This document shows, piece after piece, positions 40,310-54,843 of a stretch of 64,000 nucleotides of DNA. The DNA is from a virus, in the IMG/VR virus record IMGVR_UViG_3300043409_001462, positions 32,001-96,000 of that record; one strand, 5' to 3'. The notes under the pieces are model-generated. The model saw only the letters and a program-made list of their open reading frames with translations, had not been told where the DNA came from and did no database searches. The translations under genes were made by a program, and so were the position numbers. Positions within the stretch are counted from its first letter, which is position 1; the number at the start of each line of letters is the position of its first letter.

Positions 40310-41050
40310 ATGGCAGTTCCAGCATCAAGAGAAAATTTCAAAGAGTACTGCCTACGTAAGCTAGGTAAACCTGTCATTGAAATCAACGTAGACGACGATC
40401 AGGTCGACGATCGTATCGATGAAGCTTTGCTCTATTACGCTGATTATCATTTCGATGGAACTGAAAAACAGTATTACAAATATCAGGTAAATCAAACTGA
40501 TATAGACAACAAGTATATTACTCTACCAGAAAATATCATTGGCGCTGTAAATATTTTCCCAGTAGGGCAGGGATTAAATACTAATAACCTTTTCAACATC
40601 CGTTATCAAATCGCATTAAACGATCTTTATACTCTTACATCGGTATCGATGGTGCCATACTACATGGCTCTTACCCATGTTCAATTTCTTGAACAGATGC
40701 TTGTTGGTCAGCAGCAGTTAAGATACAATCGTCATACGAACAAATTTCATGTCGATATGGATTGGAATATTATTAACGTTGGCGAACATCTAATTATCGA
40801 AGCATATCAAGTTGTTGATCCTAATACGTACACTAACGTATGGGGCGATCGTTGGTTAGCTCGTTATACTACTGCTATAATTAAACAGCAGTGGGGAACA
40901 AACATGAAGAAATTTCAAGGTATGCAGTTACCAGGCGGATTAACATTTAACGGTCAGCAAATTTATAATGAAGCTACTGAAGAACGTAAAGAGTTAGAAA
41001 ATGAAATGATCACAAGTTATAGCCTACCAGTTACAGATATGATAGGATAA
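40310..41050 (+). CDS. gp13: neck protein gp13
   Basis: YCLRKLGKPVIEINVDDDQVDDRIDEAL...YHFDG; KQQWGTNMKKF.GMQLPGG. Confidence 0.95.
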   Translation: MAVPASRENFKEYCLRKLGKPVIEINVDDDQVDDRIDEALLYYADYHFDGTEKQYYKYQVNQTDIDNKYITLPENIIGAVNIFPVGQGLNTNNLFNIRYQIALNDLYTLTSVSMVPYYMALTHVQFLEQMLVGQQQLRYNRHTNKFHVDMDWNIINVGEHLIIEAYQVVDPNTYTNVWGDRWLARYTTAIIKQQWGTNMKKFQGMQLPGGLTFNGQQIYNEATEERKELENEMITSYSLPVTDMIG

Positions 41051-41053
41051 GCT

Positions 41054-41611
41054 ATGTTATCATTTAATTTATTTAATCGTTTAGACGAAGATATAAAAAA
41101 AGCATTAGGGTTTGCACGTAGAGCTCATGCTGGACAAACAAGATCAGACAACACACCTTATATTCGTCATCCTGAAAGAGTTGCTGCTACTGTTAAAAAA
41201 TTTAAAAAGTCTCATAATATTGATGCTATCATAAGCGCTGCATATCTTCATGACACTATTGAAGACACTAATACTACTAAAAAAGATTTAGAAAAAATGT
41301 TTGGCGCTCTTGTTGCATCTTTAGTTCAGGATCTTACTTCTGATAAAGAAAAAATATCAAAAGTTGGTAAAACAGAATATCTATCTCAAAAAATGAAAAA
41401 AATGTCTAGTTATGGATTGGTTGTGAAGCTAGCAGATAGATTAGATAACGTACAAGATATCAAGTCAGCAAAAAATGCTGCATGGCGTAATAAATATAAA
41501 AAAGAAACTCTTGATATTTTAAATTTCATAGAAAAAGAAAGACTATTGTCAAATACTCATATGAAAATAATCACAGAAATACGCCGTAAGTTGGCTGAAC
41601 TGGACCACTAA
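41054..41611 (+). CDS. RelA/SpoT-family HD hydrolase (small alarmone hydrolase, Mesh1-like)
   Basis: AHAGQTR, PYIRHP, AAYLHDTIEDT, LVQDLT, VKLADRLDN; no synthetase domain. Confidence 0.9.
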   Translation: MLSFNLFNRLDEDIKKALGFARRAHAGQTRSDNTPYIRHPERVAATVKKFKKSHNIDAIISAAYLHDTIEDTNTTKKDLEKMFGALVASLVQDLTSDKEKISKVGKTEYLSQKMKKMSSYGLVVKLADRLDNVQDIKSAKNAAWRNKYKKETLDILNFIEKERLLSNTHMKIITEIRRKLAELDH

Positions 41612-42354
41612 TGGCAACCAATTTTTTCTTCAATAATTTTCAATCATCTCAAGAGCAGCTGCTACTCGAGAACCTAATTATTGAAGCTATCAAAATATAT
41701 GGCGAAGACATGCTTTATCTCCCACGTAAGCTGGGAAATTTTGATCAGCTATACACTGCTGACGATCAAACCATTTATGATAAAGCTTATCCAGTAGAAA
41801 TGTATATCAAGTCAGTAAATGGGTTTACAGGCGATGGTAACTTTATGTCTAAGTTTGGTCTTGAAATTAGAGACCAGGTTACATTTTCTGTTGCTCAAAG
41901 AGTTTGGCTTGAGGAAATTGGCACAATTACCAATTATACTCGCCCAAATGAAGGCGACGTAATTTACTTTCCATTAAACAAGAAATGCTTTCAAATTAAA
42001 TCAGTAAGCAAGCTTGAAATGTTCTATCAGTTAGGTGCTCTTCAAACTTGGGAATTAACTTGTGAGTTATTCGAATATAGTAACGAACAGTTTAATACTG
42101 GTATACCAGAAATAGATATTATTCAAACTAAATTTTCAACTAACATTCTTGACTATTCAATAACAGATGAAGACGGAATGTATCTAATGGATGAAAATAG
42201 TGATTTTATTACTAGCGAAAAGTATGATTTAGAAACTATCGTCCCAGGCGCGCAAAATAATACTTTAGAGGATGGTACTGTTAATTTCCCAATAGGATCG
42301 AACGACTTTATTGATTTTAGTGTTATTGATCCATTTAGTGAGGGACATATCTAA
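41611..42354 (+). CDS. gp14: neck protein gp14
   Basis: EQLLLENLIIEAIKIYGED..YLPR; FMSKFGLEIRDQ; RPNEGD.IYFP; FYQLG; LTCELFEYS. Confidence 0.95.
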   Translation: MATNFFFNNFQSSQEQLLLENLIIEAIKIYGEDMLYLPRKLGNFDQLYTADDQTIYDKAYPVEMYIKSVNGFTGDGNFMSKFGLEIRDQVTFSVAQRVWLEEIGTITNYTRPNEGDVIYFPLNKKCFQIKSVSKLEMFYQLGALQTWELTCELFEYSNEQFNTGIPEIDIIQTKFSTNILDYSITDEDGMYLMDENSDFITSEKYDLETIVPGAQNNTLEDGTVNFPIGSNDFIDFSVIDPFSEGHI

Positions 42355-50013: not shown

Positions 50014-51171
50014 ATGGCAAAGTATCTCAAGGAAGTTTTAAAAGGTGTTAAGTCAAGCACTAAGGTTACAAACGACCTTGGTGGATATAAGCCAAAGGCT
50101 GGTGACGAAGAAGATTTCGCAAAGAAGCATGAAATCGAAAAACATGCCGATCGTGTAGGCAACGGCGATGATGTATATAAGGGTACAACTAAGCATGTTC
50201 TTGCAAACACAAAAGAAAAGAACCATGGCTATAAGAAGCCAGAAGATGCTAAGGTAAACGAAGAACAAATTGACGAAGCTGGTATGCCTGCATCTGTTAT
50301 CAAAAGTAAGCAACATCGTGCTAATATGACTGATAAACAATTTGCTGATTCACATAAAGATAAATCTGATGCAGATCTAAGATCAATGGCTTGGCGTCAT
50401 GGTCATGGCAAACCAGGTACACCTGGTCATAACCATTATGTCAATAGACGCAATAAAGGTTTAAAAGAAGAAGTTCAAATCGACGAATTGTCAACTGATC
50501 TTTTGCATCGTGCAGCAAATAAAGCTGCTAAAAAAGCTATGACTGATGTTCAGGGTCGTTCTGGTCCTATTTTTAAAAAGCGAGCAGCACAGGCTAATAA
50601 GTTTCGCGATAAAGGTATGGCACAGGAAAAGAAAGAAAAAGCTGTTAAAGAAGAAACTATTGACGAAGCATCAATGAAACAAAAACAGCACACTAACAGA
50701 GTAAAAACAATGCCTGGTAAAAAAGGCGCTGTGATGGGTGCAACTTCTAATTTCGAAGCTCCATTCCATAAGGTCCATGCTACAATTTCAAAAAGTGGTG
50801 GATCTAAAGAAGTAGTAAAGCACGAAATTAAAGCTAAAGACAAGCATGATGCAATTTTTAATGTTCAAATGATGCACCACAAGGCTGGTCATAAAGTACA
50901 CGATACAAAGTATAAAGGTACTGTCAAGGAAGAAGCAGAACAAATCGATGAGCTTTCAAAAAAAACTCTTGGTAATTACGCTCATGCAGGAGTAAGAGAT
51001 ATCGCTTCTCGTCAGTACGCTCTCGGTAAGGGTGACAAATCTAATACAGGCAAACTTATGAATCGTCGTAAGGGCGTTGATAAAGCAATCAGTAAGCTTA
51101 CTAAAGAATCTGAAACACCAATTACGTTTCCAAATAAGCAATCAAATAACGCAGTAGGACAAAACGTATGA
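50014..51171 (+). CDS. Lys/His-rich internal head/prohead core protein with repeated (Q/T)IDE protease-type sites
   Basis: Between portal and protease; EEQIDE, EEVQIDE, EETIDE and EEAEQIDE separate basic modules. Confidence 0.65.
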   Translation: MAKYLKEVLKGVKSSTKVTNDLGGYKPKAGDEEDFAKKHEIEKHADRVGNGDDVYKGTTKHVLANTKEKNHGYKKPEDAKVNEEQIDEAGMPASVIKSKQHRANMTDKQFADSHKDKSDADLRSMAWRHGHGKPGTPGHNHYVNRRNKGLKEEVQIDELSTDLLHRAANKAAKKAMTDVQGRSGPIFKKRAAQANKFRDKGMAQEKKEKAVKEETIDEASMKQKQHTNRVKTMPGKKGAVMGATSNFEAPFHKVHATISKSGGSKEVVKHEIKAKDKHDAIFNVQMMHHKAGHKVHDTKYKGTVKEEAEQIDELSKKTLGNYAHAGVRDIASRQYALGKGDKSNTGKLMNRRKGVDKAISKLTKESETPITFPNKQSNNAVGQNV

Positions 51172-51455: not shown

Positions 51456-52133
51456 ATGAAGCTAATTACAGAACTAGTAGAACAAGTAGAATATATTACT
51501 GAAGCCAAAGAATCTGGTGAAAAGCAGCATTATATTCATGGCATTTTTCTACAGGCTGATAGAAAAAATAGAAATGGTCGTATCTATGAAATGAATATTC
51601 TAGAGCCAGAAGTTAATCGTTATATTGCTGAAACTATTAAACATAACAGAGCTTATGGTGAACTAGGTCATCCTGATGGCCCAGCTATCAATCTAGATAG
51701 AGTATCACATATTATTACAGAATTAACTCGTGATGGAAGTAATTTTATTGGTAAAGCTAAACTTACTAATACACCAATGGGTAATATTGCAAGAGGTCTT
51801 TTAGAATCTGGAGCTAATCTTGGTGTATCTTCTCGTGCTTTAGGATCTCTTCAGCCAGATAATAAAACTGGCGCTATGATGGTCCAATCTGATCTTCGAC
51901 TTGCTACTGCAGCTGATATCGTTGCAGATCCTTCTGCGCCAGATGCTTTTGTTAAAGGTATCATGGAAAACGTAGAATGGATTTATGATTCTGTTAAGGA
52001 CACTTGGCGCGAAGAGAAGCTTGATAATATCAAGAAACAAATTCATACTATGTCTAAAAGAGAAATAGAAGAGCAGAGACTTGCTATTTTCGAGAACTAC
52101 GTTAGCTCTTTAGCTTTTAAAATCAATAAATAA
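51456..52133 (+). CDS. gp21: prohead core protease gp21
   Basis: MKLITE, GIFLQ...NRNGRIY, GELGHP, GVSSR.LGSL, DIVADPSAPDAFV.GIME. Confidence 0.97.
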   Translation: MKLITELVEQVEYITEAKESGEKQHYIHGIFLQADRKNRNGRIYEMNILEPEVNRYIAETIKHNRAYGELGHPDGPAINLDRVSHIITELTRDGSNFIGKAKLTNTPMGNIARGLLESGANLGVSSRALGSLQPDNKTGAMMVQSDLRLATAADIVADPSAPDAFVKGIMENVEWIYDSVKDTWREEKLDNIKKQIHTMSKREIEEQRLAIFENYVSSLAFKINK

Positions 52134-52167: not shown

Positions 52168-53373
52168 ATGTCAATTAAAAAGTTTCAAATGAAAGACCTT
52201 CTAGAGCAGGTTGCTACCAACGAAGCTAAGAAGAATGCAGTCAACGAAGAAGAAATCGTTGAGGAAGAAGTTGAAGAAGAAGTAGTTCTAGAAGCTGAAG
52301 ATGCTGAAGAAGATGAATCAGAAACTGATTACGAAGAAGATCAGGAAGATGAAATTGAAGAAGAAACTACTGCAGCTGCTTCTCTTAAGCCAGGTGCTAA
52401 TTCAGTTGACGATCCTAAGTCCAAAATTGGTATGATTGCTAATATGATTGGTGCTATGCAGTCAATGGGTAAAGAAGATCTTGTTAAGTGGTTCGATCAG
52501 ACCATGTCTCTTTACGGTCCAGGTAAGGATTGGGGCGTAGGCGATAAGTCTGGTTCTAATCAGTCTTCAATTGACATGAGTCCTTCAGCAGCTTCATCTG
52601 CAACTGGTCCAAAAACTAGAGACGGTATGCCAAAGCTTTCTGTCAAGGAAGACGTTGAAGAAATGTTTGCTGGCTCTGATCTTTCAGAAGAATTTAAATC
52701 AAATGCAGCAACACTATTTGAAGCAGCTGTACATGCTCGTACAATTGTTGAAATTGCTCGTCTTGAAGAAGAATACGAAGCAGCTTTTGCTGAATCTGTA
52801 GAAGAAATTACAGAAGAACTTACATCTAAGCTCGACTCGTATCTTGAATATGTAACTGAGCAGTGGATGGAAGATAACGAAGTTGCTATTGAGTCAACAC
52901 TTCGTAACGAATTAATGGAAGAATTTATTGGTGGTCTAAAGGGTCTATTTGCTGAACATTATATCGACGTTCCACAGGAAAAAATCGATGTAATCGAAGC
53001 TCTTGCTGAAAAGGTAGAAACACTTGAAGCAGCTCTTGACGAATCCATCAATGAAAATGTAGAGCTTAAGAGAAATATTGCAGAAGTAGAAAAGGATGAT
53101 ATCCTTGAAAGCCTATGCGATGGTCTTGCTCTTTCACAAGTAGAAAAGTTCAAGGCGCTTGCAGAAGGCATTGAATTTGACGGCGACCTAGAAACTTATG
53201 GCAATAAGCTAGTTTTTGTTAAAGAAAACTATTTCGGAGCTAAAAAGTCAGTAGTTTCTACTAATATCGAAGAAGAAACTTTTGAAGGCGAAACATCTTC
53301 AACTAACACAGTTTCTATCGATCCATCCGTTAATCGTTACGTTCAAGCAATTAACAGAAACATAAAGAAGTAA
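52168..53373 (+). CDS. gp22: prohead scaffolding protein gp22
   Basis: LSEEFK..A.T.FEAAV, DSYL.YV.EQWM..N..AIE, F..GLK.LF.EHYID.P; long acidic N-terminal extension. Confidence 0.93.
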   Translation: MSIKKFQMKDLLEQVATNEAKKNAVNEEEIVEEEVEEEVVLEAEDAEEDESETDYEEDQEDEIEEETTAAASLKPGANSVDDPKSKIGMIANMIGAMQSMGKEDLVKWFDQTMSLYGPGKDWGVGDKSGSNQSSIDMSPSAASSATGPKTRDGMPKLSVKEDVEEMFAGSDLSEEFKSNAATLFEAAVHARTIVEIARLEEEYEAAFAESVEEITEELTSKLDSYLEYVTEQWMEDNEVAIESTLRNELMEEFIGGLKGLFAEHYIDVPQEKIDVIEALAEKVETLEAALDESINENVELKRNIAEVEKDDILESLCDGLALSQVEKFKALAEGIEFDGDLETYGNKLVFVKENYFGAKKSVVSTNIEEETFEGETSSTNTVSIDPSVNRYVQAINRNIKK

Positions 53374-53418: not shown

Positions 53419-54843
53419 ATGTATCTAGCTGAGGCAATTCAAAACAAGTGGGCACCTGTTCTCGATCATGACGCTCTTGGCGTTATCAAGGATCAGCACC
53501 GTCGCTCCGTAACAGCAGTAATGCTCGAAAACACAGAAAACGCCCTTCGTGAAGCTCATGCTCACACTGGCTATCAGACTCTTACTGAAGCAGGTATCGC
53601 ACCTTCTGCAGTTAACGCAATGGGTGGTTCTTCATCTACTGCTGGTACTGGTGGTATCGACACTTTCGATCCAGTACTTATTTCTCTAGTACGTCGTGCA
53701 ATGCCTAACCTTATTGCTTATGATATCTGCGGCGTTCAGCCAATGACTGGTCCAACTGGACTTATCTTCGCAATGCGTTCAATGTATGCTAACCAGCAGA
53801 CTAACTCAACAGGCTATGCTCTTAATCAGGGCGATGCTGTAACTCAGGAAACTTTCTATCAGGAAGTTAATACTGCGTTCTCTTCTGTTGTTGGTGGTGG
53901 TAACCAGCTTGGTAACAATAACGTTGGTAAGTTCCCAGGCGCAACTAACACTACACCACTTAGTGCACTAAGCCAGTATAACACTGCTGGTGGTATGGCT
54001 ACTACTGTTGCAGAAACTCTTGGTTCTAACAGTTCTGGCGCTTCTGACTTCGCTCAGATGGCATTCACAATTGAAAAGGTTACTGTAACTGCTAAGTCAC
54101 GTGCTCTTAAGGCAGAATACACTATGGAACTTGCTCAGGATCTTAAGGCAATCCATGGTCTAGACGCAGAAACTGAACTTTCAAACATCCTTTCAGCTGA
54201 AATTCTTGCTGAAATCAACCGTGAAGTTGTTCGTACTATCAACATCTCTGCTGTTGCTGGCGCTCAGGACAATACAACTACTGCTGGCGTATTCGATCTT
54301 GACACCGACTCAAACGGTCGTTGGTCAGTAGAAAAGTTCAAGGGTCTTATGTTCCAGCTTGAAAGAGAAGCTAACGCTATCGCCCGTCAGACTCGTCGTG
54401 GTAAGGGTAATATCGTACTTTGCTCTTCTGACGTCGCTTCTGCACTTCAGATGGCTGGTGTACTTGACTACACTCCAGCTCTTAACTCAAACAATCTTCA
54501 GGTAGATGACACTGGTAACACTTTCGCTGGTGTTCTTAACGGTCGTCTAAAGGTTTACATCGATCCATACGCAATCGGTGGTAACTACCTAACTGTTGGC
54601 TATAAGGGTTCGTCAGCATTCGACGCTGGTCTATTCTATTGCCCATACGTTCCTCTACAGATGGTTCGTGCAGTTGATCAGTCAAGCTTCCAGCCTAAGA
54701 TCGGCTTTAAGACTCGTTACGGCATGGTAGCAAATCCATTCGCTGAAATGAATACTTCTTATCAGGCTGTTAAGGGTCAGGGTCGTCTTGATATTTCCAA
54801 GAACATCTACTATCGTCGTATGATTGTTAACAACCTAATGTAA
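53419..54843 (+). CDS. gp23: major capsid protein gp23
   Basis: KWAPVLDH, FDPVLISLVRRAMPNLIAYDICGVQPMTGPTGLIFAMR, SRALKAEYT.ELAQDLKAIHGLDAE, FQPKIGFKTRYG. Confidence 0.99.
   Translation: MYLAEAIQNKWAPVLDHDALGVIKDQHRRSVTAVMLENTENALREAHAHTGYQTLTEAGIAPSAVNAMGGSSSTAGTGGIDTFDPVLISLVRRAMPNLIAYDICGVQPMTGPTGLIFAMRSMYANQQTNSTGYALNQGDAVTQETFYQEVNTAFSSVVGGGNQLGNNNVGKFPGATNTTPLSALSQYNTAGGMATTVAETLGSNSSGASDFAQMAFTIEKVTVTAKSRALKAEYTMELAQDLKAIHGLDAETELSNILSAEILAEINREVVRTINISAVAGAQDNTTTAGVFDLDTDSNGRWSVEKFKGLMFQLEREANAIARQTRRGKGNIVLCSSDVASALQMAGVLDYTPALNSNNLQVDDTGNTFAGVLNGRLKVYIDPYAIGGNYLTVGYKGSSAFDAGLFYCPYVPLQMVRAVDQSSFQPKIGFKTRYGMVANPFAEMNTSYQAVKGQGRLDISKNIYYRRMIVNNLM

Follow-up and report, generated by a model that had tools for sequence, protein, structure and literature searches.

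The genome of an uncultured T4-like phage, whose source record of 173,384 bp is rated complete, carries a gene for a small alarmone hydrolase (SAH) amongst its neck and terminase genes, and the question raised by this locus is whether the enzyme is meant for the cell in which it is made or, as the initial annotation proposed, for the head of the phage and from there for the next host. The window, i.e. the whole stretch of 64,000 nucleotides that was analysed, comprises bases 32001-96000 of that record. Within it, the SAH gene (41054-41611, +) is an intact open reading frame of 185 amino acids plus stop, flanked upstream by a gp13-like neck/adaptor gene (40310-41050, +; phrog_211 at 9.9e-44) and downstream by the neck gene gp14 (41611-42354, +; PF11649 at 1.2e-29, phrog_460 at 1.5e-61). 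The gp13-like gene stops at 41050 and the SAH ATG follows at 41054 after a gap of 3 nt, with an AGGA ribosome-binding box (41044-41047, +) that can be read directly within the end of the gp13-like gene, 6 nt 5' of this ATG. At the other end, also by direct reading, the SAH stop codon (41609-41611) and the gp14 ATG (41611-41613) overlap in TAATG (41609-41613, +), and both junctions are thus as first described. Further 3' of gp14 the order is gp15, TerS, TerL, sheath, tube, portal, a 385-aa basic protein, a 92-aa ORF, gp21, gp22 and gp23.

The location between neck genes, to which the initial annotation had drawn attention, is correct for this genome (gp13-like/gp14) but not special. By a profile scan of a viral contig collection, 80 related loci were found whose SAHs are 52-81% identical, and in these relatives the gene is mobile, occurring in at least five genomic contexts: in the gp13/gp14 gap, at times with extra flanking genes; in the gap between TerS and TerL; beside a DUF6267 gene; beside homologues of other genes from the 135-145 kb cluster of the present genome; and two genes away from a homologue of the 385-aa core-like protein (L081-L085).

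With respect to the enzyme itself, residues 17-155 match the Pfam family HD_4 (PF13328) with 70.6 bits (1.6e-19; cut-off 27.2), the other Pfam match being to the general HD model only, with no synthetase or regulatory domain. The motifs A24-H25..Q28.R30, P35-Y36..H39-P40, H66-D67..E70-D71 and K125-LADRLDN132 can all be found in the protein. Amongst solved structures its sequence is closest to human and fly MESH1 (3nr1, 5e-18), with Rel/SpoT hydrolase domains and bacterial SAHs ranking next. Residues R30, H39, H66-D67, E70-D71, D128 and N132 correspond in alignment to the catalytic residues of MESH1 and do not vary amongst 72 homologues; they supply the metal-binding H...HD...D set, the ED pair, the Arg that binds phosphate and the LADRL.N Asn. 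An AF2 model based on 72 homologues (pLDDT 91, pTM 0.87) has the all-helical SAH fold and is placed by Foldseek at a TM of 0.80 to MESH1 and of 0.79 to the SAH of P. aeruginosa. Because of the HD_4 and MESH1 matches, the predicted fold and the aligned and invariant catalytic residues, the window protein is, as judged from sequence and model, a single-domain SAH with an intact active site, and the intact RelA/SpoT HD domain without a synthetase that had been seen at first is borne out. The protein had also been called very basic, in line with a pI of 9.70 and a net charge of about +11 where the proteome median pI is 6.0; in this high pI it resembles the T4 internal proteins. Its identity to the SAHs of the phage reference collection does not exceed 43%, so that the cultured phages of that collection have no closer homologue, and a megablast search of the locus DNA against the phage collection returned no near-identical DNA.

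In front of this domain lies a leader of 12 codons (41054-41089, +), whose residues precede the start of both the Pfam and the MESH1 alignments and which is predicted to be a combined capsid-targeting and gp21-processing module, with F4, F7 and L10-D11-E12 matching the determinants of the T4 capsid targeting sequence (CTS). The predicted mature enzyme, D13-H185 (41090-41608, +), would have a pI of 9.76 and retain the whole HD domain, and the start Met of the closest leaderless homologue (L106) aligns exactly to D13, i.e. to the predicted new N-terminus. The CTS of the T4 internal proteins was reportedly described by Mullaney and Black in 1996. As read from the T4 genome (NC_000866), IPII and IPIII both start M-K-T-Y-Q-E-F-I-A-E, then Ala, and IPI has F4, F7, a nine-residue spacer and I-T-E at 17-19. 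In the T4 CTS, residues 4 and 7 are the main determinants of targeting, and those of processing are residues 8 and 10; an Asp at position 10 stops cleavage but leaves targeting intact (PMC9026906). The SAH leader has this architecture with two residues between F7 and L10-D11-E12, a spacer that lies within T4's own range since that of IPI is nine residues long; the cleavage motif accordingly falls at residues 10-12, as compared to 8-10 in IPII/III and 17-19 in IPI. At P1 the leader has a Glu (E12) instead of an Asp, and no fewer than 90% of the 72 homologues keep this residue; amongst close relatives the leader codons differ by synonymous changes (CCA/CCT, TTA/CTA, TTT/TTC, GAC/GAT) with the amino acids unchanged. 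The likeness to the IPIII leader and the terminal L-x-E pointed out in the initial annotation thus hold when compared with the T4 determinants, and the SAH leader is probably, if by a narrow margin, a head-targeting signal, an idea which the comparison with other leaders described below strengthens well beyond what one resemblance could do.

Two more [LI]-x-E motifs, I-T-E and L-A-E, lie in the last helix of the protein at residues 173-182 (window 41570-41599), where L180 and E182 are shared by 90% or more of the homologues. T4 Alt is reported to be trimmed at its C-terminus by gp21, and by analogy such trimming of the SAH C-terminus is conceivable.

The same window encodes a gp21-type prohead protease (51456-52133, +; phrog_207 at 1.6e-74), presumed to be the processing enzyme, and a gp22-type scaffold (52168-53373, +; phrog_237 at 4e-70), presumed to form the docking core. 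In gp23, L55-T56-E57 (53581-53589, +) aligns to the known L-T-E/A maturation site of T4 gp23, which is conserved in this phage. Moreover, the interval between the portal and gp21 genes contains the gene for the 385-aa basic protein (50014-51171, +; pI 9.73 from its translation), in which four I-D-E repeats each precede Ala or Leu; it has no Pfam or PHROG match and is, from the look of these repeats, probably a gp21-processed prohead core or internal (poly)protein. The IDE and LTE sites that had been assigned to the head module are therefore both in place, and because of the four I-D-E repeats an Asp at P2, as in L-D-E, can be said to occur in likely sites of this phage.

The leader format is not confined to the SAH. 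A strict pattern taken from IPII and IPIII (Met, an aromatic residue at 4 and 7, an aliphatic residue at 8, Glu at 10) heads two other genes of the 173-kb genome, where 0.028 would be expected from the rate at internal positions. One of them (genome 142125-142700; L009:12125-12700) codes for a low-complexity protein of 191 aa with a pI of 10.4 and no family match, which shares 7 identities with T4 IPII in its first 12 residues, including the Ala-Arg after the Glu, and which is on this account a candidate internal protein. The other (genome 136470-138530; L009:6470-8530) codes for a protein of 686 aa in which the strict leader is followed by DUF6267 (PF19782, 1e-90) and then by a cytidylyltransferase-like domain (phrog_3041, phrog_395); its gene adjoins that of the SAH in many relatives, and the product is a candidate packaged enzyme. 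Both genes belong to a cluster headed by T4-type late-promoter boxes. At genome positions 135097-142128 (L009:5097-12128), this late-promoter-headed cluster also encodes lysine-rich proteins of 452, 392, 148 and 479 aa without family match as well as a Dps/ferritin-like protein (PF00210, 1e-24), and it may be an internal-protein cassette. As a control, the strict pattern applied as DNA finds ipII, ipIII and gene 61.1 in T4, three matches in total, and the reversed pattern has zero matches both in T4 and in the genome of the window phage. Gene 61.1 (NC_000866 18966-19130; L104:667-831) is a hypothetical gene of 54 aa with a strict CTS-format decapeptide at its start. No ADP-ribosyltransferase was matched in the genome of the window phage by a search that stayed blank on the control genomes, too.

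Amongst the 1255 distinct ORFs of the 80 related loci, 34 bear the strict leader, compared to 0.21 expected, which is an enrichment of about 160-fold. These 34 ORFs fall into 18 clusters with unrelated bodies, the SAH being just one of these clusters. In one locus (L087:10001-14718), five consecutive genes with the strict leader and without any Pfam match lie directly 3' of the SAH gene in an array that looks like the hyperplastic internal-protein locus of T-even phages, and in three others (L008, L015 and L018) the SAH gene is immediately followed by an ORF for a HEAT-repeat protein with the leader. T4 Alt is the textbook case of a packaged and injected enzyme. For this reason the most telling neighbour is a gene just past the portal gene of a further contig (L020:6727-7599), which codes for an Alt-like ADP-ribosyltransferase of 290 aa with the strict leader (PF03496 5.7e-23; phrog_802); the same contig also has a leader-bearing SAH, here between TerS and TerL. 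In addition, leaders resemble each other within a locus. At the four positions left free by the pattern, there are on average 1.26 identities within a locus as against 0.85 between loci (permutation p = 0.006), and for SAH versus non-SAH leaders the respective values are 1.44 and 0.77.

What can be observed, namely the enzyme family and its intact active site, the leader format, the recurrence of that leader on unrelated proteins and the presence of both protease and scaffold, might be brought together in the following chain of events. The SAH gene would be transcribed late, along with the neck and terminase genes, and the 12-residue leader, by its aromatic residues 4 and 7, would let the protein dock into the scaffolding core while the prohead is being assembled, in the manner of the T4 CTS. 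A gp21-type protease would then cleave past E12 (L-D-E/D), and the basic enzyme of 173 residues would be retained with the packaged DNA and enter the next host alongside it. There, ahead of any phage gene expression, it would strip the 3'-diphosphates from (p)ppGpp or (p)ppApp or, alternatively, act on tRNA ends that have been pyrophosphorylated by toxic alarmone synthetases. Docking, cleavage, ejection, the substrate and the benefit are what we infer here, and the chain as a whole, from late synthesis through docking, cleavage, packaging and ejection to the hydrolysis of alarmones or tRNA ends, has in our estimate about an even chance of being right. On this view the protein is a predicted Mn-dependent 3'-pyrophosphohydrolase of the RelA/SpoT family that is made as a pre-protein. 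The initial interpretation is supported in part, its identification of the enzyme being right.

As to the timing, the SAH gene is embedded in the string of neck and terminase genes, which is presumably an operon of the late type. A TATAAATA box is found 25-35 nt 5' of the start in three SAH homologues (L014, L037 and L078); directly 5' of the window SAH there is none, the nearest one being at genome position 71273. Late-promoter boxes precede 6 of 46 leader genes compared to 56 of 1126 others, which is a modest enrichment (p = 0.03). A promoter of its own for the SAH gene was considered and rejected: the best sigma-70 match of the region, with 11 of 12 consensus positions, is at 40940-40969 (+), inside the gp13-like gene and 85 nt 5' of the SAH gene, but the match is probably due to chance since it is not conserved in relatives (L013 and L015; L014 is not alignable across it).

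Late expression would be odd for a counter-measure that is required at the start of an infection, and this speaks against the most serious alternative, which is that of an ordinary cytoplasmic SAH, expressed late, that lowers (p)ppGpp or (p)ppApp or reverses the action of toxSAS in the producing cell. On this account, which we consider rather unlikely but worth weighing, the N-terminal extension would be nothing but helix, uncleaved and serving, e.g., oligomerisation or stability instead of sorting. It has in its favour that the phage SAHs tested to date, from PVP-SE1 and SSU5, act inside the cell without a leader, and that the AF2 model runs helix 1 through the leader, which is placed as an extension of that helix. 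Furthermore, T4 gene 61.1 has the strict format on a protein that, to our knowledge, has not been described as packaged.

The variation within the SAH family bears on this alternative as well. Leaderless SAHs are found in Vibrio phage pv27, Burkholderia phage BcepSaruman and the T4-like Stenotrophomonas phage DLP6, in each case amongst small genes annotated only as hypothetical, which in DLP6 are of an early type and thus fit a cytoplasmic enzyme. The notion that leaderless SAHs occur only outside the T4-like phages had to be given up, as DLP6 is T4-like, with a capsid protein 74% identical to that of the window phage, and pv27 has a distant gp23 homologue. A match in Campylobacter phage A11a was discarded, being a full-length SpoT in an unverified record. 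The pI values of the leaderless SAHs, three sequences only, are 5.4, 6.0 and 9.3. In 185,579 prokaryotic species genomes, the closest relatives of the SAH are at most 52% identical, and most of their alignments begin at query residue 11-14, those listed as starting at residue 1 being full-length proteins of the Rel/SpoT type with long N-terminal regions. From these comparisons, together with the start of L106 at D13, the varying spacer, the synonymous changes in the leader codons and the mean pLDDT of 50 over the first 10 residues of the AF2 model, the leader of the SAH is a detachable add-on. A 174-aa SAH on a contig of a Cyclobacteriaceae MAG (L108:3001-3525) has a leader-like decapeptide that is shifted by one residue and ends in I-T-E; this contig may be a prophage or mis-binned phage.

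Conservation of the leader, put forward initially as a point to be checked in the homologues, turns out to be partial. The format of aromatic residues at 4 and 7 plus L-x-E is kept by 91 of 185 distinct family members, but not by the 26 members that have a short form nor by 68 with other extensions, some of which end in D and not in E. Across the family, the aromatic pair and the L-x-E are separated by anything from 0 to about 12 residues. Since only about half of the family fits the format, the N-terminal helix extension may have some other role, and the third of the family with non-conforming N-termini agrees with the cytoplasmic account. However, this account leaves unexplained why the same leader is found, about 160-fold enriched, on unrelated neighbouring proteins, why SAH leaders and other leaders co-vary within genomes, why an Alt homologue carries the leader, and why the predicted cut falls exactly where the nearest leaderless homologue begins.

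It is also possible, though improbable, that the protein is packaged into the head by means of its leader but has a substrate or role unrelated to alarmones, acting on NADPH or PAPS-type compounds or else serving as a structural, DNA-associated internal protein. Substrates of the NADPH and PAPS types have been reported for MESH1, and the MESH1-NADPH and MESH1-PAPS complexes are amongst the top structural matches of the SAH model; the high pI, too, is as in the DNA-associated internal proteins of T4. Yet the full set of (p)ppGpp-hydrolase residues is invariant in the 72 homologues, which argues for a conserved catalytic role, and alarmones or pyrophosphorylated tRNA are the substrates of those bacterial and phage SAHs that have been assayed to date. 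That the leader is a tag for an altogether different system, be it modification by an enzyme like a radical-SAM maturase, secretion or membrane targeting, or a recombination scar of mobile cassettes, is very improbable in spite of the mobility of the SAH gene amongst at least five genomic contexts, as the complete genome has no radical-SAM gene, by which a modification tag of that kind was rejected, the leader is conserved as a peptide while its codons differ, and it matches the mapped T4 determinants position for position in phages with gp21 and gp22.

Compared to known systems, the packaged hydrolase proposed here would combine features that have so far been encountered separately. Phage-encoded SAHs as such are already known (PMC7229694; PMC9712102), and PaSpo and PbcSpo, from Salmonella phage SSU5 and from PVP-SE1, respectively, are stand-alone SAHs that neutralise every tested toxSAS toxin (Jimmy et al. 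2020, PMC7229694). The window protein is likewise a phage-encoded single-domain RelA/SpoT HD hydrolase with a plausible role in anti-defence; however, the published pair has no described head-targeting leader and was assayed by expression in cells. MESH1 and the SAH of P. aeruginosa (5vxa, 3nr1, 6yvc) have its fold (TM 0.79-0.80) and the same catalytic residues, but they are cellular housekeeping enzymes without the 7-10 extra N-terminal residues and the strong basic charge. With IPI, IPII and IPIII of T4 it has in common an [LI]-x-E behind aromatic residues at 4 and 7, the basic character, a leader common to unrelated proteins of one phage, and the presence of gp21 and gp22, whereas the putative cargo here is an enzyme whose catalytic family is known, encoded by a phage which is only a distant relative of the T-even phages. 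With T4 Alt, finally, it would share the concept of a pre-made host-takeover enzyme that travels in the head and undergoes processing by gp21, as is predicted for the SAH, but the enzyme family is another one, and the short propeptide of T4 Alt differs from the leader. A literature search returned no paper on a packaged or ejected, i.e. virion-borne, alarmone hydrolase, nor one on the CTS in connection with ppGpp; thus the SAH and the T4 CTS are each known, and their combination was not found in the literature. Since the leader is short and portable, the prediction is directly testable in the T4 expression-packaging-processing system.

If the proposed chain is true, a counter-defence against alarmone-based immunity or starvation signalling would arrive as a finished enzyme with the entry of the DNA, and would thereby leave toxSAS-type systems or a stringent host no interval during which to stop the phage. 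The T4 principle of capsid targeting would then extend beyond the T-even phages to distant uncultured relatives, and the injected proteome of such phages would become readable from their sequence. In its widest form, which we put forward tentatively and at somewhat less than even chances, this would mean that environmental T4-like phages have a head-delivery system that can be predicted from sequence, in which the leader addresses at least 18 unrelated families to the head, its cargo ranging from Alt-like ADP-ribosyltransferases, DUF6267-cytidylyltransferases and basic internal proteins to an alarmone or tRNA-pyrophosphate hydrolase, and in which the injected SAH may disarm the stringent response or abortive infection of the toxSAS/CapRel type.
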